Below are positions 2,515 through 17,134 of a stretch of DNA of 64,000 nucleotides, piece by piece. A program made the translations under genes and the position numbers. The notes below the pieces were generated by a model. That model saw only the letters and a program-made list of their open reading frames with translations. It was not told where the DNA came from and did no database searches. Within the stretch, counting starts at the first letter, position 1, and each line of letters opens with the position of its first letter. The DNA comes from Thermoanaerobaculia bacterium (GTDB lineage: Bacteria; Acidobacteriota; Thermoanaerobaculia; UBA5066): assembly GCA_963719225.1 (NCBI GenBank), contig CAVRAY010000001.1:2912001-2976000 (forward strand), in the 5' to 3' direction.

Positions 2515-4380
2515 TCAGGCCGCGCGGGGGATCGAGTCGAGCGCGGCCTTGGTCTCCTCACGGCCCGTGCGCCAGTGCCTCGCCCAGCGCGGAATCGCGT
2601 CGGCGAGGACCAGGAGGACGGACGCCATCATCACGGCCGTCAGACCCGAGTTCAGCCAGCCCTTGAACGCGTCCCCCGGGCGGACGGACCGTGCGAGAGG
2701 AAGAAAGATGTCGCGGATCGACAGCGCCCCGCCCGCGAGCGTCGTCGTCCCGACGAAGAGGAGTGGCACGATCGTCACCAGGGCGTAACGCGAGCGGCCT
2801 TCGTTCACGATCACGGTCGTGGCGACGGTGAGCGCCACGACCGCGAGGAGCTGGTTCGCGACGCCGAACATGGGCCAGAGCGACTGGATCGAACCGGTGA
2901 AGATGAACCAGCTCCAGCCGCCCACGATGAGAGCCGTCGCGAAAATGCTGCCCGGCAGCCAGTCCGTTCTCGCCATGCGCGGGAAGGCGCGCCCGGCGAG
3001 CTCCTGGACGAGGAAGCGGCCGATGCGCGTTCCCGTGTCGATCGTCGTGAGGACGAAGAGCGCCTCGAACATGATGACGAAGTGGTAGAAGTAGCTCATG
3101 AGGCTCTTGGCGCCGGGCAGATCGCCGAAGATCTGGGCGATCCCGACGGCGAGCGAGACCCCGCCCCCCGTTCGCCCGGCGAGGCGCGGCTCGCCCACGA
3201 GCGCCGCGAGCTCCGACAGGCGGCCGCCGTCGAGATTCATCTTTGCGGCGAGCGCCTCGAACGCCTGCGGCGAGAGGTTGATCCGGAAGTAGTCCGCCGG
3301 AAAGAGCGACGACGCGGCGACGAGCGCCGTCACGCCCACGAGGCTCTCCATGAGCATCGCCCCGTAGCCGATGGCCCGCGCGTGGCTCTCCTTGTCGAGC
3401 ATCTTGGACGTTGTTCCCGACGACACGAGCGCGTGAAAGCCCGAGATGGCGCCGCACGCGATCGTGATGAAGACGAACGGGAAGAGGGCGCCCGGCACGA
3501 GCGGCCCGCCGCCGGACGCGAACCCGCTGACGGCCGGCGCCTTCATCTCGGGGCGCACGAGGAACACCGTGACGACGATTACGGCGATCGTTCCGACCTT
3601 CATGTAGCTCGAGAGGTAGTCGCGGGGACAGAGGAGCATCCACACGGGCAGGACCGACGCGAGAAACCCGTACGCGGCGATGGCGGCCGTGAGCGACGTC
3701 TCCGAAAGCGTGAAAAGGTGCGACGCACCCGCCCACGGATGGCCCGGCGCGAAGAGTCCGCCGAGGACGACGCACGCCATGAGCAGCGACACGCCGATGG
3801 CCGACGCTTCGGCCACGCGGCCCGGCCTGATCCGGTACATGTAGAGGCCCATCAACAGCGCGATCGGGATCGACGCGGCGATCGCGAACGTGCCCCAGGC
3901 GCTTTCGGCGAGCGCCTTGACGACGATAAACCCGAGAACCGCCATCGCGACAACGACGATGAAGAGAATCGCGATCATCGCGACGATGCCGCTCAGGGGG
4001 CTGATCTCGTCGCGTGCGATCTCCGCGAGCGAACGGCCGCCGCGCCGAACGGAAGCCCCGAGGATGACGAAGTCCTGCACCGCACCCGCGAGGCAGACGC
4101 CGAACACGAGCCACAGGAGGCCGGGGAGCCATCCGAACTGGGCCGCGAGGACCGGCCCGATGAGCGGCCCGGCGCCCGAGATCGCGGCGAAGTGATGGCC
4201 CCAGAGGACCCAGCGGTTCGTGGGATGAAAATTCTGGCCGTCGCGGCGCGTGTGCGCCGGCGTCGGTCGCCGGTCGTCCAGGCCGATCACGCGACGCGCG
4301 AGGAATCCGCTGTAGAAGCGGTAGAAGATCGCGTAGACGCCGAGCGCTCCGAGGAGCAGCCAGAACGCGTTGACCGTCAC
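2515..4380 (-). CDS. cstA: Carbon starvation protein A (peptide/pyruvate transporter)
   Basis: Motifs TPAH..DG.NF.PT, GHHFAAISGAGPLIGP, GAVQDF, ITIACGAISGFH, LWPMFGVANQLLA. Confidence 0.95.
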   Translation of the reverse strand: MTVNAFWLLLGALGVYAIFYRFYSGFLARRVIGLDDRRPTPAHTRRDGQNFHPTNRWVLWGHHFAAISGAGPLIGPVLAAQFGWLPGLLWLVFGVCLAGAVQDFVILGASVRRGGRSLAEIARDEISPLSGIVAMIAILFIVVVAMAVLGFIVVKALAESAWGTFAIAASIPIALLMGLYMYRIRPGRVAEASAIGVSLLMACVVLGGLFAPGHPWAGASHLFTLSETSLTAAIAAYGFLASVLPVWMLLCPRDYLSSYMKVGTIAVIVVTVFLVRPEMKAPAVSGFASGGGPLVPGALFPFVFITIACGAISGFHALVSSGTTSKMLDKESHARAIGYGAMLMESLVGVTALVAASSLFPADYFRINLSPQAFEALAAKMNLDGGRLSELAALVGEPRLAGRTGGGVSLAVGIAQIFGDLPGAKSLMSYFYHFVIMFEALFVLTTIDTGTRIGRFLVQELAGRAFPRMARTDWLPGSIFATALIVGGWSWFIFTGSIQSLWPMFGVANQLLAVVALTVATTVIVNEGRSRYALVTIVPLLFVGTTTLAGGALSIRDIFLPLARSVRPGDAFKGWLNSGLTAVMMASVLLVLADAIPRWARHWRTGREETKAALDSIPRAA

Positions 4381-4425: not shown

Positions 4426-5055
4426 TTACTTCGTGCGCTCGAGCGTGCCCTCGATCCCGAGCGCGATCGGCAGCCGGACGTGCGCGACCTTGTTCTCCAT
4501 GACGAGCGTGTAGATCCCCGGCTCGAACCGGCCCTTCGGTGACTCGAAAAAGAGGTGCCCCCAGGCCAGCGTCTCGTGGTCGACCGTGACCTGGTCGAAA
4601 ACGATCCCTTCGCCCGGCATGGTGAAGAATCCGAGCCGTTCTTCCTTGATGCGTCCGGGGAAATACCCGTCGAGCGGATCGCGTATGACGCGCGCCTGAA
4701 GCAGCATGCGGCTCAGGTCGGGAATCCCGTGGGCCATCTTCTTCTGGCTCGGGAGGGGCATCCGCGTTCCGTCCGGCCCGAGCAGACTGACGTCCTCGCG
4801 ATAGATCTCGACCGGTTGGCTGCCCGTCGCGGAAATGCAGGTTTCGAGCAGGATCCAGCGGCTGTCGAGGTGAGTTTGCGCGTGCTTGTATCCCACGACG
4901 ACCTGGACCACCTCGTCCCGGTACCTCGAAACGGTACGACCCATCTTCTTCACGTTCGGGGACTCGAGGTCGGCGTGGAGACTCGCGACACTCGAGAGAA
5001 GAAGAGTGGCTGCCATCAGAAAGGCCGGACCCGACCGCCGCGGGAATGGATTCAA
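4426..5055 (-). CDS. Secreted hypothetical protein
   Basis: TTG start at 5055 preceded by GGAGG; signal-peptide-like N-terminus ending VASLHA; coding-like codon usage. Confidence 0.65.
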   Translation of the reverse strand: MNPFPRRSGPAFLMAATLLLSSVASLHADLESPNVKKMGRTVSRYRDEVVQVVVGYKHAQTHLDSRWILLETCISATGSQPVEIYREDVSLLGPDGTRMPLPSQKKMAHGIPDLSRMLLQARVIRDPLDGYFPGRIKEERLGFFTMPGEGIVFDQVTVDHETLAWGHLFFESPKGRFEPGIYTLVMENKVAHVRLPIALGIEGTLERTK

Positions 5056-5179
5056 GATGATTCCTCCGGTGCTCCTCGAAGAGGAGACCTCGATTGCCCC
5101 TTGCACGGAGCATACCGTCGGGAGGACACCTTTTCCGGACGCTTCGCCTCGGGCCAGCCGGAGTAGGATCGCCCCCGAC

Positions 5180-5626
5180 ATGGACGGCAATTCGCTCGCC
5201 GGGGCCTGGAAGCTGCTCGTTTTCGAGTTCCGCTCCGAAGGACAGGTCGTATTTCCATTCGGAACGAACGTCATCGGACTGTGCCTCTATGACGCGACCG
5301 GCCACATGGCATTGCAGATCATGCGCGGAGACCGCCCCCGATTCGCCGCGAACGACCAGCAGCTGGGCACGCCGGCCGAGGTCGCGGCCGCCTTCTTCGG
5401 ATGTCTCGCCTACGCGGGCACGTACGTCGCCGACGAGGTCCACGGCGTCGTCGTGCATCACGTCTCACAATCCCTCTTCCCGAACTGGGTCGGCACGGAT
5501 CAGATCCGCTTCTACCGGATCTCCGGAGACCGTCTCATCGTGAGCGCGCCGACGCAGCAGGTCGGGGGACACCTCATGGACGTGATGCTCGTGTGGGAGC
5601 GGCTCGCTCCCGTCGCGGGGGCCTGA
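5180..5626 (+). CDS. Lipocalin-like domain protein (Lipocalin_5 type)
   Basis: LAGAWKL, G...YDATGHMALQI, AYAGTY, SLFPNWVGT.Q.R, LVWER. Confidence 0.85.
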   Translation: MDGNSLAGAWKLLVFEFRSEGQVVFPFGTNVIGLCLYDATGHMALQIMRGDRPRFAANDQQLGTPAEVAAAFFGCLAYAGTYVADEVHGVVVHHVSQSLFPNWVGTDQIRFYRISGDRLIVSAPTQQVGGHLMDVMLVWERLAPVAGA

Positions 5627-5631
5627 CGCAC

Positions 5632-7293
5632 GTGCAGAGATTCGTCCTTCCCCGCCACGTCTCGCGACGACTGCCGCTCTGTCGCCGGACGGGTCCGTGT
5701 CCGCCGGACGAGGACATCCGCTTCACCGTACTCCTCCATGCCAAGGACATGCGCATGCTCCGGGAAGCGGCAGCTGCCGTCTCGGACCCGAAGAGCTCCG
5801 TCTATGGGCGCCACCTTTCCGCCGACGAGGTACGCACGCTCGTCGCGCCCGGGTATCAGGATCTCGACGCGGTGCTGGCCTTCCTCAGAGACGCCGGCCT
5901 CACCGTGGACGGCGTCGCCGGGGCGCGTACCGCGGTCCAGGGCCACGGCCCGGCGGAGAGGATCTCGCGCGCGTTCGACGTTCCCATCGGCACCTACGCG
6001 CCGCCGCGCACCGTATCGCCTCGCGTGCGGCGCGCGATCGCGGCCGAGCGGGACCCCACGATTCCGGCGTCGCTCGCGTCCGTGATTCGCGGCGTCGCGG
6101 GACTCAACACCCTTCCCGCGGCCCGGCGCTTCCCGCCGATCTTCGCCCCGCCCCGCTCCAAGGTACCGCGGCGCGGACCCGCCGCGGCTCGCGGGCCCGG
6201 CGGAGGCTTCACGCCCGACGAGATTCGCGCGGCGTACGCCCTCCCCGATCCGGCCACGGCGGGAGGCCGCGGTGAGCGCGTGGCCATCCTCGAGTTCGGA
6301 GGCGGATTCTCGGGTGACGACTTCGCGACGTTCTGCACGCACTACGGCCTGCCTGTGGGCGACGTCACGGACGTCTCGGTCTCGGGGGCCAAGAACGACT
6401 ATCAGGGCAGGACGGGCGACGCCGACGTGGAGGTCGCGCTCGACATGGACTGGGTGCGAGGCACGGCGCCGCAGGCGGACCTGGACCTGTGGTGGACGCC
6501 CAACACGGATACGGGCTGGGTCGATTTCCTCAACGCGCTCCTCGATGCGCCGGACGCCCGCCGCCCCTCGATCGTCTCGATCTCATGGGGAATGCCCGAG
6601 GACGGCTTCGCGACGTCCCGGAGGTACGACCAGACCCGCCAGCTCTTCCTTTCGTGTGCGCTCCTCGGCATCACATTCGTCTGCGCCTCGGGAGACGCCG
6701 GCGCCGGCGACATCCTTCCGGAGGACGCCGCCTTCGACGGCCAGCGCCACGTGGACTTTCCGAGCGTCGTCCCGGAGGTGACCGCGGTCGGGGGTACGAA
6801 GCTCGTCCCGAAGGGCAGCTCCTTCGCGGAGAGCGCCTGGAACGACGGCCCGAGTCGCGGCGCGACGGGCGGGGGCTTCTCGAGGTTCGTGGCGGTCCCC
6901 GCGTGGCAGAGGGCGGCTCTGGGCGCGCGCCGCGGGGTGACGGGTCGGGGCATTCCCGATGTCGCGGCGGTCGCGTCGCCCGATCCCGGCCTCTCGATCT
7001 TCGTGAGAAAAAAGTGGACCGCCGCCGGAGGAACCAGCGTGGCGGCGCCGATCTGGTCCGGAATCCTCGCGCACGTGAACGCCGCGCGCGCGGAGGCAGG
7101 GAAACCCCGCATGGGAGCCGCGAACGCGGCCCTCTACGACCTGGCTCGCGGCGTCTCGCCTTTCCGGGACGTCACGCAGGGTGACAATTCGTACGGCGGC
7201 GTTTCGGGATATCCGGCGACGAAAGGGTGGGACCCGACCACGGGCCTCGGTTCCGTCGATACCGGAAAGCTCGTGAAGAAGCTCCTCGCCTGA
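5632..7293 (+). CDS. S53 family peptidase (kumamolisin/sedolisin) with activation prodomain
   Basis: Catalytic motifs EVALD, SISWG, ASGDAGA, GGTS; C-terminal GWDPTTGLGS; GTG start just after upstream stop. Confidence 0.92.
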   Translation: MQRFVLPRHVSRRLPLCRRTGPCPPDEDIRFTVLLHAKDMRMLREAAAAVSDPKSSVYGRHLSADEVRTLVAPGYQDLDAVLAFLRDAGLTVDGVAGARTAVQGHGPAERISRAFDVPIGTYAPPRTVSPRVRRAIAAERDPTIPASLASVIRGVAGLNTLPAARRFPPIFAPPRSKVPRRGPAAARGPGGGFTPDEIRAAYALPDPATAGGRGERVAILEFGGGFSGDDFATFCTHYGLPVGDVTDVSVSGAKNDYQGRTGDADVEVALDMDWVRGTAPQADLDLWWTPNTDTGWVDFLNALLDAPDARRPSIVSISWGMPEDGFATSRRYDQTRQLFLSCALLGITFVCASGDAGAGDILPEDAAFDGQRHVDFPSVVPEVTAVGGTKLVPKGSSFAESAWNDGPSRGATGGGFSRFVAVPAWQRAALGARRGVTGRGIPDVAAVASPDPGLSIFVRKKWTAAGGTSVAAPIWSGILAHVNAARAEAGKPRMGAANAALYDLARGVSPFRDVTQGDNSYGGVSGYPATKGWDPTTGLGSVDTGKLVKKLLA

Positions 7294-7320: not shown

Positions 7321-9803
7321 TCAGGGCGCGCTTCTCACGAAGGCGGCGTTGACGGGGGCCGGCATCGGGGAGTCGGCGCCGCGGACGCTCTTCCAGATCG
7401 CCTCGTTGAGGGGCACGTCGGGGGCGGCGTCTTCCCTCGAGAAGTCCCACGTGTCCGCAAGAGCCTGCATCGGCGCGCCGCGCGGATTCGTCTCGTAGAA
7501 CGGGATCGCCGTTTCGCGGTGGACGAAGGGCGCCGGGTCCGGCACGTCTGCGAACGCGGCCGTCATAGGCGTCGCGCCCGCGTCGTGCTGCGACATGGGC
7601 GGAAGCCCGAGGATGAGCTCCATCGTCCGGAGCATGGACGTCGTCGAATACATCGTCGAGTCCACGGCTCGGCGCCGCGTGTACGGCGACACGACGAGCG
7701 CGACCGTGCGATGCGCGTCGACGTGGTCGGGTCCGTTCTGGGCATCGTCCTCGACGACGAAGACCGCCGTCTCGCTCCAGAAGGGCGAGAGCGAGAGCGC
7801 CTCGACGAGGCGGCCCAGGGCGACGTCGTTCTCGGCCACCATCGCGCGCGGCGTCTTGCCGCCCTTCTTCGTCCCCACGGTGTGATCGTTGCCCAGCCGC
7901 ACGATCATGAGCCGCGGCATCTCCTTCTTCTTCACGTACTGGGCGAATTCCTTCAGCCAGATGTCGACGCGCGCGTTGTCGAGGATTTCCGTGTCGAATC
8001 CCGGGTAGTAGGGATTCGTGTTCGCCCTGAGCGCGCCCTCCTGACCCTGCGAGAGGCCCGCCTCGAGCGGCGTTTCGGATTCGGAGGCGATGCCCGTGAA
8101 CTCGCCGTAATTGCGCAGCGAGAGCCCGGCGCGCGCGGCCGCGTCCCAGAGGTAGCCGTTCGTCGGAAACGCCGCGGGATCGTTCCCTTCGAAGAGGTAG
8201 GAGAAGCCGTGGCTGCCGTAGCTCGGAGGCCAGACCTTCTCCACGAAATCCGTCGCGTACGCGCCCATGGACCAGTTGTGGCCGTCGGCGGAGACCTCGG
8301 CATCGCAGTAGAAGTTGTCGAGCGTGACGTACTCCTCGGCGAGCGCGTGCGCGTTCGGCGTCACGTCGCGCCCGAAGAGGACGAGCGACGGGTCGCCGTT
8401 GCCCTTCGGGAGGTCGCCGAGGACCTGGTCGTACGTGCGGTTCTCGCGGACGACGTAGACGACGTGCTTGATCGGCGACGTGCCGCCGGGCGCGGCCGGC
8501 ACGACGGCCGACGCGCGCACGGTGAGGGATCCCCGCGCGGCGGGCCGGCGGTTCGCGTACGCCCGCGTGGTGAGAGATGCGAGCTGGCGACCGTCGGGAA
8601 CCGGACGCGCGAGACGCTGCCGGGGATCGTCCGCGTGAGGCGCGTCGGGTCTCCGAGCTTCGGCTTCGTCGGATCCGGCCCGCCCTTCGAATTCTCCCAC
8701 GAGCCGCCGCCCTTCGCATTCGCGACCCAGAGGGTCCTCCCGTCGCGCGAGAGGGCGAGCGCGTCGGGATACCAGCCGGACGGGATGAATCCCTTCGCGC
8801 GTGCCTTCGCGGGACCGAGGGAAAGATCCACCACCGCCACGGCGTCGTCGTCGGCATTCGCGACGAAGAGCCTCTTCCCGTCGCGCGAAAGGGCCAGCGC
8901 GTTCGGCGTCGAGCCGTCGGGCATCGCGTCCGACGAGGGCGTCCCCGGCCCGTCCGGACCGAGCGCGACCGAGATCTGCCGCACGACTCCCCGCGACGCG
9001 ACGTCCACGGCTGCGACGAGGTTCCGGTTCGCCTGGGCGACGAAGAGCGTTCTTCCGTCGGGCGAAAAGACGAGATCTCCCGGATGGTCCGCCGTCTTCA
9101 CCGAGCCGGTCGCGATCGCCTTTTCCGGATCGACGAACGTCACGGCCGCTCCGCCCCATGCCGCGAGCGCGAGGATCTTTCCATCCGGGGAGAAGACCGG
9201 CCGGTAGGGATGGATGCCCGCGGAAACCCCCGCGACGACCTGCCTTGCGGCGAGATCGACCTTCACGACGTCGTTCGCGAGGATGCGCGCGGCCCAGAGA
9301 GTCTTGCCGTCCGGTGAGATGGCGAGCCCTCCCGGCGTCGCGTCGACTTTCGGCCCGTCCTCCTTGCGCTTCAGCGAGATCGGCTCCTCGGCGACGAAGC
9401 GGTCCCGTTCCAGGCGATAGACGAGGACGTTTCTCCCTTTGGCGCCGGCGACGTACGCCCGCGCGCCGTCCGGCGAGAGCGCCATGCCGAGCCACGAATG
9501 CGGCAGGGGCTGCTTGAAAAGGGACTTCCCCGAGGCGGCGTCCAGCAGGTGGAGCGACTGGTCATCCGCGCCGGTGCAAAGCGCGACGACCCGGCTTTCA
9601 TCGGGCGCGAGCGCGAGCGCGAACGGGTAAGGCGAAACCTCGGTCTGCGTGCCCGTCGGGGTCAGCAGGCGCCCGTTCGGGAGCTGGACCTCGCCGGTCG
9701 GCAGGCGCGACGGTACGACGCGGTCGGCTACGAGGAGCGAAGAAGAAAGAGAAAGAGAGAATGAGAATCTGCTTAGAAAGGAAAGAAAGAACGAGACGCG
9801 CAT
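7321..9803 (-). pseudogene. YncE beta-propeller / phosphoesterase (alkaline phosphatase superfamily) fusion, split by a 1-nt frameshift at ~8603 (probably a sequencing error)
   Basis: N-terminal ORF 8361-9803 carries YVTN-type repeats; C-terminal frame carries IKHVVYVVRENRTYDQVLGD, EVSADGHNW, GNDHT, EDDAQNGPDHVDAHR; adding one C restores ...SVSRVPVPDGRQL... Confidence 0.85.
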
Positions 9804-9839
9804 ATGGGGAAGACTAGCGCGCTCGACAGCTCATTCGCC

Positions 9840-10625
9840 CTAAATCGATATCCGCGCGACGCCCAGGACCTTCCGGCTCTTTCTCTCCTGAACGAAAGCC
9901 ACGGCGTGTAGCTCATTTCTCTTCCAGTCCGCTTTGAGGCGAAGCGGGCGCTCCGTCTCGAAAAGTCCTCCCGGTCGAACCGTGCTCACGACCGCGAGTT
10001 CGCGAACGACGGCGCCGTGCACGAGGCGCCGCCCCGCGTTCTCGCCCCGCGGCACGTCGCTCGCGAGCCCGTCCTCGGTGATCGCGAGGAGGAGCTCGGC
10101 CGTATCGCCAGGCGTGACGGGCGGCAACGCGCTGACCCGGACCCGCAGGGCGGCCCCCTGCCCGTTCGCCGACGGCAGGATCTCGATCGACGCCTTCGGC
10201 AGACGGGCGGCCTCCTCGACCGCGTGCCGCGCCTTCTTCTCGTCGCTCCCGACGAGCTCCGTGCGCCCATCCACGACGACCTGCGGCGTGTAGACGCGGC
10301 TTTCGCCCCAGGCGCGGCCGTAGTCGCTCTGGCGCGCGCTGAACGACTCGGAGGAGTAAGGATCGGCCCACCCGAGGCGGTTCCAGTAATCGACGTGCAA
10401 GGACAGTGGCACGACCTCGGCACCGGCGACCGGCTGGGTCCGCTCGAGGCGCACGAGCGCGAGGTCGGCCGGAGGGCAGCTCGAGCAACCCTCGGACGTG
10501 AACAGCTCCACGAGGACCGGAATGCGGGCGGATCGAGGTCCCTCGGCGCTCGTCGAGCCGGCGGCGAGTACGAGCACCGCCGTCAAGATGATTCTCTTGG
10601 AAAGGACTTCGAAGACAGAAGACAT
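9840..10625 (-). CDS. DUF1223 family secreted thioredoxin-like protein
   Basis: VLVELFTSEGCSSCPPAD, HVDYWN.LGW.DP, YTPQ, GEN.GR.L.H; signal peptide. Confidence 0.92.
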   Translation of the reverse strand: MSSVFEVLSKRIILTAVLVLAAGSTSAEGPRSARIPVLVELFTSEGCSSCPPADLALVRLERTQPVAGAEVVPLSLHVDYWNRLGWADPYSSESFSARQSDYGRAWGESRVYTPQVVVDGRTELVGSDEKKARHAVEEAARLPKASIEILPSANGQGAALRVRVSALPPVTPGDTAELLLAITEDGLASDVPRGENAGRRLVHGAVVRELAVVSTVRPGGLFETERPLRLKADWKRNELHAVAFVQERKSRKVLGVARISI

Positions 10626-10749
10626 CGGACCGCCTCGTTCAGGATATCTCGCGAGGCCATGCGTCTATTCCCACGCCCGGCGCGGCGATCACGTGCTCTC
10701 CGAGCGGGCCGAGAAATCGAGGTGGACCTCTCGGCCTGACGGCCGTTCG

Positions 10750-11280
10750 CTATCGCGTTCGAGACTCGGCGCCCGCGACCGCCCGCGCGATCTCCGAGTC
10801 TCCGGGGCGCTTGCGGTGATCGCTTTCCACGAAACGCCAGGCTTCTCGCCCTTCACGGTCGACGAGAACGAGGGAAGGCGGGAGCCGGGGAGCCGTTCCC
10901 CCGTTTCCGGCCGCCGGGCGGTTCAGGGTTCTCACGCGCGGCGAGGAGAGGAAGCGATGCGTGAGCCGAACCCGGCGCTGCTGTTCGACGGACGCGACGA
11001 GGGCGCGCGACTGTTCGGGAGAGTCCGGGGCGACGACGAGGACGGAAACGTCTTTCAACGCGGTCCCCTTCAGGCGCTCGAGCTGGAGCAACTGCTCCAG
11101 GCACGCCGGTCACCACGCGCCGCGCGTGAACGCGAGAAGGACGAGGCGCCCGCGGTACTCGTCGAGAGTGACCGTCTTTCCGTCCGCGTCGGGAAGAGAG
11201 ATCGCGGGCGCAGGCGGTCTCTCGGCAGCGGCCGAGAGCGCGAGGGCGATCGTGACCGCTCCCAGGACCAGTCTCGTCAC
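10750..11280 (-). CDS. Secreted AhpC/TSA (redoxin) family selenoprotein, UxxC motif (in-frame TGA at 11112-11110)
   Basis: GTG at 11280 overlaps the kinase stop; signal peptide, APAISLPDADGKTVTLDEYRG..VLLAFTRGAW-TGA-PAC continues in frame into ...PSLVLVDREG..WRFV..DHRKRP; SECIS hairpin follows the TGA. Confidence 0.88.
11083..11100 (-). promoter_or_regulatory. Bacterial SECIS element
   Basis: On the mRNA, CUGGAGCA-GU-UGCUCCAG is a perfect hairpin starting 9 nt after the UGA, with G in the apical loop. Confidence 0.8.
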
Positions 11281-13649
11281 GAGAGCAGTATAGATTCCGG
11301 CCGTGAGCTCTCGATCAGCCGGATGAACCGTGGCTCGCTCTTCAGGCTCTCGAAGTCCGGATCGAGGCGGGCGCGCTCCACGACGTAGACGCGGCGCATC
11401 GCCGCCGCGGCCTCGAGGACGTCGAGCGCCCGTTCCGCGTCGCCGAGGAGGGCCCAGGCCGCGGCGACGTAGTACCGCGTGAACGGCTCGTCCGCTCCCA
11501 ACCGCAGGCGGTCCTCGAAGGCTCCCACGGCGAGCGTGAGCGCCCGGTGCGCCTCCTCGGGATGTTCGAGCGCGAGGTGCGCGCTTCCGATCCGCGTGTG
11601 GAGCTCGATGACCGCGCGGTCCTTCAGCGCATGATCGACGCGCCGCAGGAAAGAGAGCTCCCGGTCGTAGGATTCGAGGGCCTCCGCTGGCCGGCCCTGG
11701 AGCGCTCGGATCTGACCGAGCTTCATGTAGGCCCCCACGATGACGATTCCTTCGCGGCCCGAGAGTCCCCTCTCCTGAAGCTCGATGGCCTGCCGCGCCG
11801 CGCGCTCGGCGCGCGGGAAGTCCCTCAGCAGGGCCGAGACGTGCGCGAGCTGGAGCGCGTACCAGCCTCCTTGCGGATTCAGGGCGAGGGCCCGCTCGAA
11901 GGAATCCACCGCGTTCTGAAACCGCCCGGTGCCGATGAAATGGGCGCGCGCCAGCGCCGCATGCGCCGCGGCGTCGTCCGGGTCCAGCTCCAGAGACCGG
12001 CGAATCGCCTCCAGCCCTTTGTCCGTGCTTCCGATGTCGACGAGCGTTCCGCCGAGCTCCTTCCACGCGCGCGCGAGGCGCGGCTGGAGGGCGAGGCATT
12101 TTCCGAAGCTCGTCATGGCTTTCTCGAGCAGCTCCGGCATCGCGAGATCCGTCGCCTTCACTTCGTAGGCTTCGCCGAGCGAGAGCCACGCGCGGGCATA
12201 GAGCGGATCGAGCGCCACGGCGCGCTCGAAGAAGAGGATCGCGCGGTCGACGGATTCCCGGCTCTCGGCGCGGAGGTTGATGAGACCCTTGGAATACGCC
12301 TCGTACGCGTCGATGACGTGCGTCTCCTCGGGCTCTTTCCCGGCAGGGCTCGAGGCGAGATGCATCGCCGCGGCGAGCTCCGCGACGACGCGGTCCTGCA
12401 AGGCGAAGAGGTCGCTGCGGCTGCCGTCCACCTTCACGGTCGTCACGACCTCGCCGGACTCCACGTCCGTCACGCGCGCCGTGATGCGCATGACGTCCCC
12501 GACGCCCTGGAATCCCCCCATCACGACGCGACGCGCGCCCACCTCGCGGCCGAGCCGGATGGCGAGCTCGCCCGCGCCCGACGCCGACTCGCCGGTCAGC
12601 CGCTTCTCGACCTCGCACACCCGCTCACAGCCGATCACGGAGAGCCCGGGCACGTTCTTCAGGTCGGCGGTGACGGTCTCCATGATGCCGGTCGAGAGCC
12701 AGTTGTCTTCGGGGTTCTTCGTGATGTTCGAGAACGCGAGAACGGCGATCACGCTTTCGGCCGGGGTCGAGGAAACCGAAGGCGCTCCCGATCGCGGCGC
12801 GCCGCCCGCCAGGGCCGAGAGCTCGTGCGCAACGTCGCGCATCGCCACGCGTCGGTCGCGGTCCTTCGCGATCATCTTCAGGACGAGGGCCTCCAGGTCC
12901 CGCGAAACGGCCGGATTGAGCCGCGTCAGGGAGGGCGGCTCCGCGTGGAGCAGCGCGTCGATGACGGCGACCGTGTTCGTGCCTTCGAAGGGCCGGCGGC
13001 GGGCGAGAAGCTCCCAGAGGAGCACGCCCAGCGAGAAAACGTCCGTCCGCGCGTCGACGTCGCGGCCCAGGGCCTGCTCGGGCGACATGTACGCCACGGT
13101 GCCGAGGACGGAGCCCGGCGTCGAGCGGGTCGGATCCGCGCCGATCGCGCTCCAGGTCTCGCTTCCCTCGCCCGGCACGGGCCGGAACGCGGCGAGGCCG
13201 AAGTCCAGGACCTTCACGCGTCCCCTTCCGTCCACCATGACGTTCCCGGGCTTGATGTCGCGGTGGACGACGCCGCGCGCATGGGCCGCCGCGAGCGCGT
13301 CAGCGACCTGATGGACGATGTCCACGGTCTCGCGGACCTCCGGCGGGCGCTCCTTGAGAATCGCAGAGAGCGTGCGCCCCGCGACGTACTCCATCGCGAT
13401 GAAGCTCTGCCTCCGCCCTTCGCGTTCCACCGTGTCGACGTCGTAGACGACGGCGATGTTCGGGTGGTTGAGCTGGGAGGCGAAGCGCGCCTCGCGCAGG
13501 AGGCGCCCTTCGTGGTCCTCCGCGCCCCGCAGCAGCTTCAGGGCGACGGGCCGCCGCAGCTTGAGGTCCTCGGCGCGGAAGACCTCTCCCATCCCGCCTT
13601 CGCCGAGGCGCTCCGCGATGCGGTAATGCGCGAGGACTTCGCCGACCAC
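11277..13649 (-). CDS. Hanks-type Ser/Thr protein kinase with TolB-like/FlgO domain and TPR repeats
   Basis: LGEGGMGEV, VALK, HRDIKPGN, DFGLA, GT.AYMSPEQ; then IAVLAF.N and TPR-like helices. Confidence 0.95.
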   Translation of the reverse strand: MVGEVLAHYRIAERLGEGGMGEVFRAEDLKLRRPVALKLLRGAEDHEGRLLREARFASQLNHPNIAVVYDVDTVEREGRRQSFIAMEYVAGRTLSAILKERPPEVRETVDIVHQVADALAAAHARGVVHRDIKPGNVMVDGRGRVKVLDFGLAAFRPVPGEGSETWSAIGADPTRSTPGSVLGTVAYMSPEQALGRDVDARTDVFSLGVLLWELLARRRPFEGTNTVAVIDALLHAEPPSLTRLNPAVSRDLEALVLKMIAKDRDRRVAMRDVAHELSALAGGAPRSGAPSVSSTPAESVIAVLAFSNITKNPEDNWLSTGIMETVTADLKNVPGLSVIGCERVCEVEKRLTGESASGAGELAIRLGREVGARRVVMGGFQGVGDVMRITARVTDVESGEVVTTVKVDGSRSDLFALQDRVVAELAAAMHLASSPAGKEPEETHVIDAYEAYSKGLINLRAESRESVDRAILFFERAVALDPLYARAWLSLGEAYEVKATDLAMPELLEKAMTSFGKCLALQPRLARAWKELGGTLVDIGSTDKGLEAIRRSLELDPDDAAAHAALARAHFIGTGRFQNAVDSFERALALNPQGGWYALQLAHVSALLRDFPRAERAARQAIELQERGLSGREGIVIVGAYMKLGQIRALQGRPAEALESYDRELSFLRRVDHALKDRAVIELHTRIGSAHLALEHPEEAHRALTLAVGAFEDRLRLGADEPFTRYYVAAAWALLGDAERALDVLEAAAAMRRVYVVERARLDPDFESLKSEPRFIRLIESSRPESILLS

Positions 13650-13709: not shown

Positions 13710-14954
13710 ATGGCGAGAGGGGACCGCGCGGACTTGAAGGATCTCGCCATGCTCTTTCTCCGCCTCGGCGCCACGGCTTTCGGCGGCCCCGCGGCTCACA
13801 TCTCGATGATGGAGCACGAGGTCGTGACGCGGCGCGGCTGGATGACGCGCGAGGAGTTCCTCGACCTCCTCGGCGCGACGAATCTCGCGCCGGGGCCGAA
13901 CTCCACGAAGATGGCGCTCTTCATCGGCCACGCGCGCGGGGGCTGGCCGGGCTTTCTCCTCGCCGGCCTCGGCTTCGTCCTGCCCGCGACTCTCCTCGTC
14001 ACCGTCTTCGCGTGGGCCTACGTGCGCTTCGGCTCCCTTCCCGCGTTCCCGCATTTCTTCGAGGGCATCAAGCCCGTCGTCCTCGCGCTCATCGCGCACG
14101 CCCTCGTCAGCCTCGGACGCACGGCGGTGAAGAACAAATTCTTCCTGGCGCTCGGGCTCGCCGCGCTCGCTGCGAGTTTCTTCGTCCATGAGCTTCTGCT
14201 GTTGCTCGTTGCGGGTTGTCTCTCGACGGGGGTGATGGTGTTGGAAGATTTGCTTAGAAAGGGTAAGAGGAGCGGCAAAGCTCCGGCATCGTCGGAGCGC
14301 GTCGACGGCGTTGAAGGTGCAGGTGATGCCAAGCGCGGCGACGTGTCGGGAGGCGCGCCTGCCCACCCCCAACCCCCTTCTAAGAAATCTTCTCTTCTCT
14401 TCCTTCCCCTCTTCTCCCTCGGCGTCCCTCTCTCGTCTTTCTCCCTAACCAGCCTTCTCCTCTTCTTCCTGAAGACCGGTGCGGTGCTGTTCGGCAGCGG
14501 CTACGTGCTCCTCGCCTACCTGAAAGCGGATCTCGTCGAGCGCTGGCACTGGCTCACGAGCGCGCAGCTTCTGGATGCCGTCGCGGTAGGCCAGTTCACG
14601 CCGGGGCCGCTCTCGTCCACCGCGACGTTCATCGGCTACGTGCTCGGGGGCCTGCCGGGGGCGTCCGTCGCGACGCTCGGCATCTTCCTTCCCGCCTTCG
14701 TCCTCGTCGCGGTCATGGGGCCGTTCGTGCCCCGTTTGCGGCAGTCGAGACTCCTCGGCGCTTTCCTCGACGGCGTCAACGTCGCGGCGCTCGCGCTGAT
14801 GGGCTACGTCACTCTCCAGTTCGCGCGGCCCGCTCTGACGAACGGCCCGACGGTGGCCCTTTTCCTCGCCAGCGTGGCGCTTCTCTCGACCGTGAGGATC
14901 AACGCGGCCTGGCTCGTCCTCGCGGGCGGGATCCTCGGGGTCGTTTTCGGCTGA
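13710..14954 (+). CDS. chrA: Chromate efflux transporter (long-chain CHR family)
   Basis: FLRLGATAFGGPAAH, PGPNS, FGSGYVL, GQFTPGP; two homologous halves. Confidence 0.93.
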   Translation: MARGDRADLKDLAMLFLRLGATAFGGPAAHISMMEHEVVTRRGWMTREEFLDLLGATNLAPGPNSTKMALFIGHARGGWPGFLLAGLGFVLPATLLVTVFAWAYVRFGSLPAFPHFFEGIKPVVLALIAHALVSLGRTAVKNKFFLALGLAALAASFFVHELLLLLVAGCLSTGVMVLEDLLRKGKRSGKAPASSERVDGVEGAGDAKRGDVSGGAPAHPQPPSKKSSLLFLPLFSLGVPLSSFSLTSLLLFFLKTGAVLFGSGYVLLAYLKADLVERWHWLTSAQLLDAVAVGQFTPGPLSSTATFIGYVLGGLPGASVATLGIFLPAFVLVAVMGPFVPRLRQSRLLGAFLDGVNVAALALMGYVTLQFARPALTNGPTVALFLASVALLSTVRINAAWLVLAGGILGVVFG

Positions 14955-14967
14955 GCGGTTTCTCTTC

Positions 14968-16959
14968 CTACGGGCCGACCTCGAACGGCGCGCGCCGCAG
15001 ATCGAGCGCGGGATTGCGGTCGAAGAAATGGGCGGGCTTCAGCTCGAACGACAGTGATTCACGCGCCAGGACCGGAGAGTCCTCGGTCACCGGCACGTGG
15101 TGAAATCCAACGGTCAGCCAGAGCACGATGTCCGTGTCGACGAGCCCCTGGTTGTTCGCGATGTACTGAGGCAGCCCGGGCTCGCCGGGGTTCTGGTTCG
15201 GCGTGTCGCCGGCGGCGTAGCGCTCGTCCGGATCGAACGCGGTCACCCAGAGGTTGTGCTCGATGAACCGCGCGCGCCGGAAATCGTCCTTCTTCAGCAG
15301 CGGCTCGACGTTGGCCTGCGATTCGACAACGAAGCCCGTCTCGTAGCCGCGGGCGTTGTGCCGGTGCGGATTGACGACACGCCACAACGAGTTCTTCTCG
15401 TCGAGCTGGCCATCGGCCTCCCGTCGCAGCACCGTTTCGTCGAGGACCCAGACGCTCTTGCGCGGCCCCGGCGCCGGGCGCTCCTTGAGCTGGCCGAGCA
15501 CGAAGCTGTTGTTGCGGCCGTCGACGTCGACGTCCAGGCGGAAGTTGAAGTGGTGGCTGTGATTGATCGCGACGAGGTTCGGCGAGACGAGGGCCCCGAA
15601 CTCCGTCTCCGGCGCGCCGTCGCCGAGCGTCTCGGCCACGACGGCCCTCGGCGCGTCGATGCCCGTCAACCCGACTTCGACGCGGATCGAGCCGCGCTGC
15701 GTGAAGATCCAGTCGACCATGTAGTCGTAGTTGCCGAGCTGGGAGATGGACCGGACCACCAGCTCGACCTCGGCCCGCCCCTCGTACGCGCCGCCCGAGA
15801 ACAGCTCGAAGTGCCGCCACACCGGGCTCCCCGTCAGGCGCTCGAAGACGCCGACGACGTTCGGCAGAGGCAGCGGAATGACCGGCAGGACGGGATCGGG
15901 GATCGCCGCCGCGACGAGCGCGTCGCGCAGCACCGCGTTCGACGGCAGGTCCAGCCCGAGCGCGAGCGGGGACGAGAGCAGCCCGAAACCGAACTCGCCG
16001 GCGTCCATGTACGTGCGATAGAACCAGTTTGTTCCGGGGTCCTGGTACGGGACGAAGATCTCGGCAAGCGAGCCCTGGTAGAGCACGGGGCGGCCGTCGT
16101 AGTTCGCGAGGGAGATCACCGTCCCGGAACGGCGCTCGAAGCGAACGTGGAAACGCCACTTCTGCCACTCGATGAAATTGCCGTCGAACGCAAAGTTGAC
16201 GCCTTGCGGCTGCGCCATCGTGATCGGCTTGAGCGCGGGGCGCAGCCCATAACGCGAGGCGACGGTGGCCTCGTCGAAGTCCTGCGTGTTCGCCGGCAGC
16301 GGAATGACGCCGGTGTCGATCACCTTGATCACCTGCCGGTCGTCGAGGTCCATGATCGCCTGCATGCCCTCGATGGGCCTGGCGTACAGGTTGATGCCGG
16401 CGCCTTCGGTGTAATACATCTGCGCCTTGACGATGCGGCGGGCCTCTTCGGGCAGTCCGAACGAGCCGGGCGTCAGTGGCGTCACGAGGACGTGCGCGAG
16501 CTGGCTCGGCGTCGTGATGCCGCGCCGCGCGAGCGCGGCCAGAAAAGCCGGATTCTGGAATGCAAACGAGAAGTCGCTCACCTCGGTGATCGTCAGACCG
16601 AGCTGGCCGTCGCTCCCGGGTATGAGCTTCGGCGCCGTGAACGTTCCGTGGGTCAGGTCGACGAACGTCTTGTAGCTCTTTTTCTCCTGTCGAAAGAAGA
16701 CCGTTGCCGCGCGCGGGATCGGGTCGCCGGCGTGGAACGCGAGAACGGCGTCCTTCGCCGGCTCGCGCAAGTCGATGCTTTGGAAGATCGCGCCGGGCTT
16801 CGCGACGTGCGCCTGCAGCAGGATGTTCGCCGCGGCGAGGATTTCGCCGTCCTCCAGAGGATCGAGCGGATGCTGGACCGCCGCACGAACCGGTGCGCCT
16901 CCGATGAGAAACGCCCCGACGACGATGACTTTCGCGCCTGTTCTGACTCTTGTGAACAT
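14968..16959 (-). CDS. tynA: Copper-containing primary amine oxidase (TPQ-dependent), secreted
   Basis: HPLDPL N-terminus, catalytic Asp in YMDAGEFG, TPQ motif GNYDY, Cu ligands HSH and FHH; AGGAGG RBS before ATG. Confidence 0.92.
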   Translation of the reverse strand: MFTRVRTGAKVIVVGAFLIGGAPVRAAVQHPLDPLEDGEILAAANILLQAHVAKPGAIFQSIDLREPAKDAVLAFHAGDPIPRAATVFFRQEKKSYKTFVDLTHGTFTAPKLIPGSDGQLGLTITEVSDFSFAFQNPAFLAALARRGITTPSQLAHVLVTPLTPGSFGLPEEARRIVKAQMYYTEGAGINLYARPIEGMQAIMDLDDRQVIKVIDTGVIPLPANTQDFDEATVASRYGLRPALKPITMAQPQGVNFAFDGNFIEWQKWRFHVRFERRSGTVISLANYDGRPVLYQGSLAEIFVPYQDPGTNWFYRTYMDAGEFGFGLLSSPLALGLDLPSNAVLRDALVAAAIPDPVLPVIPLPLPNVVGVFERLTGSPVWRHFELFSGGAYEGRAEVELVVRSISQLGNYDYMVDWIFTQRGSIRVEVGLTGIDAPRAVVAETLGDGAPETEFGALVSPNLVAINHSHHFNFRLDVDVDGRNNSFVLGQLKERPAPGPRKSVWVLDETVLRREADGQLDEKNSLWRVVNPHRHNARGYETGFVVESQANVEPLLKKDDFRRARFIEHNLWVTAFDPDERYAAGDTPNQNPGEPGLPQYIANNQGLVDTDIVLWLTVGFHHVPVTEDSPVLARESLSFELKPAHFFDRNPALDLRRAPFEVGP

Positions 16960-17134
16960 CATCGGCCTCCTGACCACTCTCATACTCACAATCTCGTCAT
17001 TTCCGCGCTTCAGGGGACACGGCGCGGTCGTACGCGGGTCGAAACCCGAGCGGGCGCTTCGAAGCTATCATCGCCCCCTGAGGGGCGATCAAGCGGAATC
17101 GGACCGGTCCCGTCCGCTCAAAAAAGGAGAAATC

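Follow-up and report, generated by a model that had tools for sequence, protein, structure and literature searches.

A predicted exported UxxC selenoprotein of the Redoxin/AhpC-TSA fold in Thermoanaerobaculia

Introduction

Bacterial selenoproteins with a UxxC motif in a peroxiredoxin-related domain have been predicted before. Table 1 of PMC13188914 lists both a Prx-like thiol:disulfide oxidoreductase (PF00578, UxxC) and a Redoxin family protein (PF08534, UxxC) as predicted selenoprotein families; in the accessible text of PMC1088965, the Prx-like family is the one in which UXXC replaces TXXU, and the same family is listed in the accessible part of PMC9312934. For peroxiredoxins themselves, the accessible text of PMC13188914 gives the motif PxxxT/SxxC, in which the redox residue comes last. 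Export of selenoproteins has precedent, since SaoB, SaoC, and SaoX, as described in the available portion of bioRxiv 10.1101/2022.07.06.499078, carry signal sequences; their folds (ABC substrate-binding, CC-COOH protein) are unrelated to the one discussed here, and they belong to an anaerobe gene cluster. A literature search pairing Thermoanaerobaculia with selenocysteine (Sec) returned no paper, no title or abstract opening from the related searches names the clade, and the accessible main texts of deep-Sep and BSepDB do not mention the family under the terms searched; the BSepDB database, with 57,630 entries from 16,621 species according to the accessible text of its paper, and the supplements may already hold members.

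The window analyzed here is a 64,000-nt stretch (G000:C1:2912001-2976000) of the genome of a Thermoanaerobaculia bacterium, designated G000. Thermoanaerobaculia is a class of Acidobacteriota. The window contains a selenoprotein gene that is real, well supported, and of an already known kind, and nothing in the finding overturns known biology. As far as the Prx-like and Redoxin UxxC families are characterized in the sources above, the predicted protein shares with them the Pfam domains, UxxC in place of TxxU/TxxC, a canonical bSECIS element, and Cys homologs, whereas its clade is distinguished by an N-terminal signal-like segment throughout and by its position in Thermoanaerobaculia. Placed by domains and motif rather than by representative sequences, the putative protein fits the stated definition of these families. 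The features of the locus and of its surroundings are collected in Table 1.

Table 1. Coordinates, strand, and basis of assignment of the features in the window.
Feature	Position	Strand	Basis or remark
Redoxin/AhpC-TSA-fold selenoprotein gene, 176 aa, GTG start, TAG stop	10750..11280	-	Frame, Pfam, and fold matches
Predicted Sec-pathway signal peptide, residues 1-19	11224..11280	-	Basic N-terminus, then a hydrophobic core and Ala-Ala-Ala ahead of Glu20
TGA codon 57, very likely decoded as Sec; opens the U-P-A-C motif	11110..11112	-	Cys in full-length close homologs, TGA in genus orthologs
Cys60, likely resolving cysteine of UxxC	11101..11103	-	Cys in 36/36 parsed loci (pattern allowed C, G, S)
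SECIS upper stem-loop, 7-bp stem, AGUU loop (11093-11090), G second, on rare TTG Leu codon	11083..11100	-	
Pro135 at thioredoxin cis-Pro site, peroxiredoxin catalytic Arg position	10876..10878	-	Alignment to 2ywn
Promoter-like site TCGAGA, 16 nt, TATACT; ends 6 nt before GTG	11287..11314	-	
DUF1223 gene, CxxC motif, N-terminal hydrophobic stretch	9840..10625	-	Pfam PF06764, 199 bits
CstA	2515-4380	-	Pfam
Kumamolisin-like protease	5401-7293	+	Pfam
TPR-containing Ser/Thr kinase	11277-13649	-	Pfam
Chromate transporter	13710-14954	+	Pfam
Copper amine oxidase	14968-16989	-	Pfam

Results and Discussion

Gene Structure and Selenocysteine Machinery

A single 176-codon frame runs on the minus strand from GTG (11280-11278) to TAG (10752-10750) with one internal TGA (11112-11110) in the context RGAW-U-PAC. 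As the initial annotation noted, the list of open reading frames splits this gene between a 502-aa shadow ORF, whose tail terminates in ...RGAW at 11110, and a 113-aa ORF with a TTG start (11091-10750); read-through of the TGA, as proposed there, does yield a 176-aa protein in an otherwise uninterrupted frame. Hexamer scores are of coding type on both sides of the TGA (0.62 and 0.39). A contig from another public run spans 11014-11182 with one difference, at 11029, and is identical over the TGA and the hairpin, which disposes of the earlier concern that reads might show TGC or TGT instead.

The machinery for Sec insertion, named beforehand as a check on the gene, was found in full: profile scores for selA (443 bits), selB (296 bits), and selD (335 bits; it carries a TGA of its own) are all above cut-off, and so is that for a tRNA-Sec with a TCA anticodon (59.9 bits; ARAGORN call SeC(tca)). 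This is the only tRNA of the genome with that anticodon, the tRNA-Trp having CCA. Among the 29 genomes of the genus, selA was found in 28 and selB in 26. An intact single gene in which UGA codon 57 is read as Sec is very likely, and the decoding as such, judged from the machinery together with the conservation of the hairpin described below, almost certainly takes place.

The SECIS Hairpin and Its Conservation

An inverted repeat, CTGGAGCA-GT-TGCTCCAG, begins 9 nt 3′ of the TGA, as originally described; the GT loop assigned to it was wrong because a loop of 2 nt cannot close, and the loop is instead the 4-nt AGUU. Folding gives a 7-bp Watson-Crick stem, with the loop starting 16 nt after the UGA, at -20.7 kcal/mol over 45 nt. 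The bSECIS model, as given in the accessible text of PMC13188914, calls for a loop of 3-9 nt, a stem of 4-16 bp, a G at loop position 1 or 2, and 16-37 nt from the UGA, with an MFE <= -7.5, and on comparison by hand the element agrees with all four of the model's criteria (loop 4, stem 7, G second, 16 nt, at the energy above). TTG, the leucine codon at the loop, accounts for 1.9% of Leu codons in the genome. Taken alone, the hairpin is moderately unusual: 1.5% of the 92,146 TGA triplets in the genome are followed by one as good under the same rule, and synonymous recoding of the same peptide gives seven Watson-Crick pairs in 3.1% of draws. The case for a putative SECIS element is stronger on its orthologs than on this single sequence.

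In total, 36 loci were read in detail, 11 from the genus and 25 from a draw of class genomes, comprising 28 TGA forms and eight Cys forms. A stem of 6-7 bp whose loop begins 16 nt past the TGA (at least six of the seven pairs at the fixed position) is kept in 26 of the 28 TGA forms and in none of the eight Cys forms; if five pairs are taken to suffice, the contrast shrinks to 28/28 against 5/8. The base at +19 is G or U in all 28 TGA forms and in none of the Cys forms, and it falls in a TTG codon in 19 of the 28. One TGA locus, L017, comes from an unpublished genome (G025), and without it the counts become 25/27 and 27/27. Two pairing registers occur among the loci, one with a 4-nt and the other with a 5-nt loop. 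In the 5-nt register, double-sided changes were observed in five of seven pairs of the ungapped alignment; its covariation score was reached by none of 500 shuffles and exceeds that of every slide, the runner-up being the 4-nt register of the window gene's own clade, with the proviso that a single-register count mixes two loop sizes and that, over the full set of loci, the 4-nt register taken by itself has a lower score. As related genomes are not independent, these hairpin and covariation counts are not probabilities. The close Sec/Cys pairs, with equal residues in different codons, are a clean natural test of SECIS needs in the phylum, the features concerned being the loop at +17, A-G-U/G, and the two pairing registers.

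Distribution of Orthologs and Database Records

Matches were obtained in nine of the 29 genus genomes. Of six close orthologs (73-100% identity), five, including the window gene, have TGA and an identical 18-nt hairpin. The sixth, in G004, is 73% identical and has TGC (Cys), and it retains the peptide LEQLLQ through synonymous codons that break the stem; its genome has selA and selB despite the Cys form. In the draw from the class, 52 of 401 genomes gave a total of 53 matches, 47 with one TGA and six with none; for 23 of the 53, for which no locus was obtained, the count covers the presence of a TGA and not its codon position. The gene is dispensable, being limited to those nine genus genomes and broken in one of them: in G003 (L042:5377-5700), TGA and hairpin are kept, but a frameshifting deletion follows soon after codon 77, and this copy is likely a pseudogene.

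A protein database search returned 44 matches, namely 10 full-length Cys forms at 73-82% identity, 26 C-terminal fragments, one N-terminal fragment ending in RGAW, and seven distant proteins. The proposed pairing of TGA with Cys is borne out by the full-length close homologs, all 10 of which have Cys at the TGA column. These 10 are also the only whole proteins among the 37 homologs with at least 70% identity, so that database surveys pick up the Cys form, which is in the minority, while the commoner Sec form escapes them. Because 23 of the 26 C-terminal fragments begin at a Leu within the hairpin, it is the SECIS codon that supplies the false start; the prediction that standard annotation would miss the gene is reflected in protein databases that hold mostly split fragments. 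A profile search against 1.84 billion representatives yielded only three matches at E 1e-30 or better, along with more fragments, which either begin close to profile position 62 or terminate at 56-57.

A quick, unrooted tree, built without L013 and L017, unites the 10 closest Cys forms with Sec forms and fragments in one group (88% support). Four changes of the Cys label are required on this tree, of which at least two are forced by well-supported branches. A repeated change from Sec to Cys is suggested, its direction being read from an unrooted tree.

Domain Assignment, Active Site, and Predicted Export

The identification as an AhpC/TSA-type redoxin holds, with both PF08534 Redoxin (62.6 bits, cut-off 26.6) and PF00578 AhpC-TSA (53.1 bits, cut-off 26) matched above threshold. 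Neither the window protein nor eight relatives reach the cut-off of any NCBIfam family. The best match is to the SelL-related family NF040769, with which the fold region and motif position are common but which scores 37.1 bits against a cut-off of 120 (32-56 bits in the eight relatives). Scores for NF047696 (30.2 of 230 bits) and NF002854 (25.2 of 170 bits), the TlpA and ResA families, are likewise below cut-off. The structure model has a pLDDT of 77, and Foldseek placed Bcp4, PrxQ, and AhpE first, with ResA after them; TM-scores by query length for the BCP/PrxQ/AhpE matches were 0.56-0.73.

Within this fold, the catalytic residues differ from those of peroxiredoxins. In an alignment to PrxQ (2ywn), Arg53, Sec57, Cys60, and Pro135 occupy the PrxQ Pro, Thr, Cys, and Arg positions, respectively; RGAWUPAC thus departs from PxxxT/SxxC, with Arg at the Pro site and Sec at the Thr site, and the catalytic Pro, Thr, and Arg of BCP/PrxQ/AhpE are all absent. 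The peroxiredoxin catalytic Arg is conserved and sits before a late beta strand. At the corresponding column of the 36 loci, Pro occurs in 32, Ala in two, and Arg in none, two loci being unparsed. That UxxC lies at the CxxC position, as first proposed, follows from U-P-A-C, with the TGA aligned to the Cys of homologs; the column of Cys60 holds Gly in one of the 10 Cys homologs (P0005). As the fold is peroxiredoxin-first while the peroxiredoxin catalytic residues are replaced, the predicted protein pairs the shape of a Prx-like protein with an active site of the thioredoxin type. Membership among peroxiredoxins, TlpA, ResA, or SelL-related proteins was ruled out by the motif, catalytic Arg, and cut-off tests. 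It resembles TlpA/ResA/DsbE in its WCxxC-type motif, the Pro at the cis-Pro site, a predicted extracytoplasmic location, and a likely supply of electrons from DsbD, but it has a likely cleaved signal peptide rather than a membrane anchor, Sec rather than Cys, and scores far below the family cut-offs. No cytochrome c maturation genes were present among the scanned neighbors.

The predicted signal peptide shows the Sec/SPI pattern, with A-x-A at the presumed cleavage site, and has no lipobox Cys, and a hydrophobic stretch precedes the domain in all 36 loci (by hydropathy, with no control set). From this sequence pattern and hydropathy we consider it quite probable that residues 1-19 direct export and are then cleaved, and the original description of the protein as secreted is accordingly narrowed to a most likely periplasmic location.

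Genomic Context

The promoter-like site upstream of the redoxin is the only one in 9700-11500, against a mean of 0.1 in shuffles. A TATACT/TATAAT box lies 6-9 nt before the start in five of the six close orthologs, two of which lack the upstream kinase gene, and this conserved -10 box makes a leaderless or near-leaderless transcript likely; the site supports the GTG start codon and a promoter belonging to the redoxin gene itself. Counted over the genome, -10-like hexamers are most frequent at a distance of 6 nt upstream of ATG, with 76 cases compared to 6-12 at 2-5 nt, which suggests many leaderless mRNAs in the lineage.

The next downstream gene in five of the six close orthologs encodes DUF1223, and the DUF1223 protein is a possible, if weakly supported, partner of the redoxin. 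In G023 (L040:5159-6361), the Sec redoxin is fused in frame to DUF1223, with TGG at the stop codon of its relatives and without the DUF1223 signal region; this is a single case and could be an assembly artefact. It remains the lone case, since a search for fusions (E <= 1e-10; 7,997 candidates) found no longer homolog, weak evidence according to the tool's own note. No DUF1223 match was found within about 1.5 kb of 29 more distant loci. The kinase gene, which overlaps the GTG by 4 nt, was also considered as a partner and rejected, being absent in G023 and G004.

Close kin share PKD, epimerase, and glycogen-debranching genes as repeated neighbors. Among the flanking ORFs of distant loci, 28 of 48 were scanned with Pfam, and no recurring redox partner was seen in these; outside the genus, no conserved neighbor points to a substrate. 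Copper amine oxidases produce H2O2, and one is encoded in the window, but an amine oxidase does not adjoin the redoxin in the relatives read. The genome has two matches to the PF00115 heme-copper oxidase family, at family level only. A 282-aa ORF at 4426-5274 on the minus strand has no Pfam match and occurs in G003 and G004 at 62-79% identity.

Proposed Mechanism and Alternatives

With the Pro, Thr, and Arg of peroxiredoxins missing and Pro135 at the cis-Pro site, the likeliest job of the protein is that of a periplasmic selenol-disulfide reductase. We lean toward a thioredoxin-fold Sec protein that would use Sec57, resolved by Cys60 and recharged by DsbD, to reduce oxidized cysteines in proteins of the envelope and thereby repair them. 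Judging from the conserved -10 box, a leaderless mRNA would start at the GTG; SelB and Sec-tRNA would bind the AGUU stem-loop 16 nt downstream of the UGA and insert Sec; and residues 1-19 would guide export before being cleaved. In the periplasm, the Sec57 selenolate would attack a disulfide or a sulfenic acid of the substrate, and the mixed bond would be resolved by Cys60 to give a Se-S ring, a chemistry rendered rather probable by analogy, from UxxC, the Pro at the cis-Pro site, and what thioredoxins do. Electrons from the cytoplasm would be passed on by DsbD, which is present in the genome and whose pairing with the redoxin is presumed. Against this reading as a reductase stand the peroxidases (Bcp4, PrxQ, AhpE) that precede ResA among the fold matches and the Cys homolog P0005, which has no second Cys. 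A periplasmic selenol would also be exposed to oxidation, which counts against it, and aerobic bacteria rarely retain selenoproteins according to the accessible text of PMC13188914. The dispensability of the gene, and the lack outside the genus of a conserved neighbor pointing to a substrate, weigh on the same side.

The same recoding and export could instead serve a peroxide scavenger, in which the selenol would reduce H2O2 or lipid peroxides and Cys60 would resolve. Selenols react fast with peroxides. The order of the Foldseek matches and the missing second Cys of P0005 favor such a role, as do the name 'peroxiredoxin' that two source databases give to the Cys homologs and the two PF00115 matches in the genome. 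It is nevertheless unlikely, as both the PxxxTxxC motif and the catalytic Arg are absent, Sec occupies the Thr position of peroxiredoxins rather than the peroxidatic one, and the genome encodes a separate BCP-type selenoprotein with TxxU.

The protein might also act as a reductase of the TlpA/ResA type dedicated to a single client, such as DUF1223, an apo-cytochrome, or a copper protein. The weak TlpA and ResA matches would fit, as would the adjacency of DUF1223 in close orthologs and its fusion in G023, but scores of 30 of 230 and 25 of 170 bits lie far under the cut-offs, DUF1223 was not matched near the 29 distant loci, longer fused forms are missing among the fusion candidates (a weak argument), and synteny within a genus is expected without any functional link; we regard a single client as distinctly improbable.

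Finally, it is scarcely credible that the TGA is a true stop (in a pseudogene or between two short genes), a sequencing error, or a codon read as Trp or Cys: gene callers do yield both fragments and the G003 ortholog is broken downstream, but a true stop is already contradicted by the retention of TGA at this codon, along with a covarying hairpin, in 28 loci spread over several families and by the coding-type hexamers on either side, an error by the same letters in the other run, and a Trp or Cys reading by the tRNAs, the sole TCA anticodon belonging to tRNA-Sec and tRNA-Trp reading through CCA.

As a small, soluble, putative member of the Prx-like UxxC group with natural Cys twins, the periplasmic reductase favored here is convenient for assay, and if it is exported and fed by DsbD, the envelope of common soil bacteria would be a site of selenium chemistry.

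A Permuted DsbD and Further UGA Genes

The DsbD of the genome (C1:1538236-1540044, minus strand; L086:1129-2940) is permuted, its thioredoxin domain being divided into two parts that flank the membrane domain in swapped order: residues 210-256, before the membrane domain, correspond to residues 78-125 of E. coli DsbD-gamma, whereas residues 551-602, with WCxxC, correspond to gamma 21-70 and lie at the end of the protein. This order was found in all 14 genus loci read and in G079, of another genus; five other genomes of the family and three of the order have the normal order. The structure model (mean pLDDT 46) is uninformative. A literature search on DsbD with circular permutation returned nothing related, as judged by title and abstract opening, and the permuted DsbD may be more novel than the redoxin itself.

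A second candidate selenoprotein, encoded at C1:208487 on the minus strand (L083:449-823), is a thioredoxin-like protein of 125 aa with PG-U-PVC and a signal-like N-terminus, and it has no NCBIfam match at E 1e-6. One could imagine an extracytoplasmic selenium-based redox relay in soil Thermoanaerobaculia, composed of a clade of exported UxxC redoxins found across the class, this second exported UxxC thioredoxin, and DUF1223 as a partner, and fed in the genus by the permuted DsbD. Such a relay is rather improbable as a whole; if true, it would join an unnamed selenoprotein subfamily to an unusual DsbD architecture in what are likely oxygen-respiring bacteria.

A de novo scan of the selenoproteome gave 201 candidates, of which the best 120 were read by eye; the scan is incomplete, since it missed selD. 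Candidates at C1:3414587, C1:3420652, C2:692034, and C1:3613144 were dropped as gene boundaries or non-coding frames. UGA genes of the genome include those for a BCP-type peroxiredoxin with TxxU (C1:116472, plus strand), a PrdB/GrdB-like protein with UxxC that scores below cut-offs (C2:437698, minus strand), a formate dehydrogenase alpha subunit named from its UHG motif (C1:736134, minus strand), and SelD (C1:3642345, minus strand). The BCP-type, PrdB/GrdB-like, and formate dehydrogenase genes have hairpins of 6-7 bp located 18-21 nt after the UGA.
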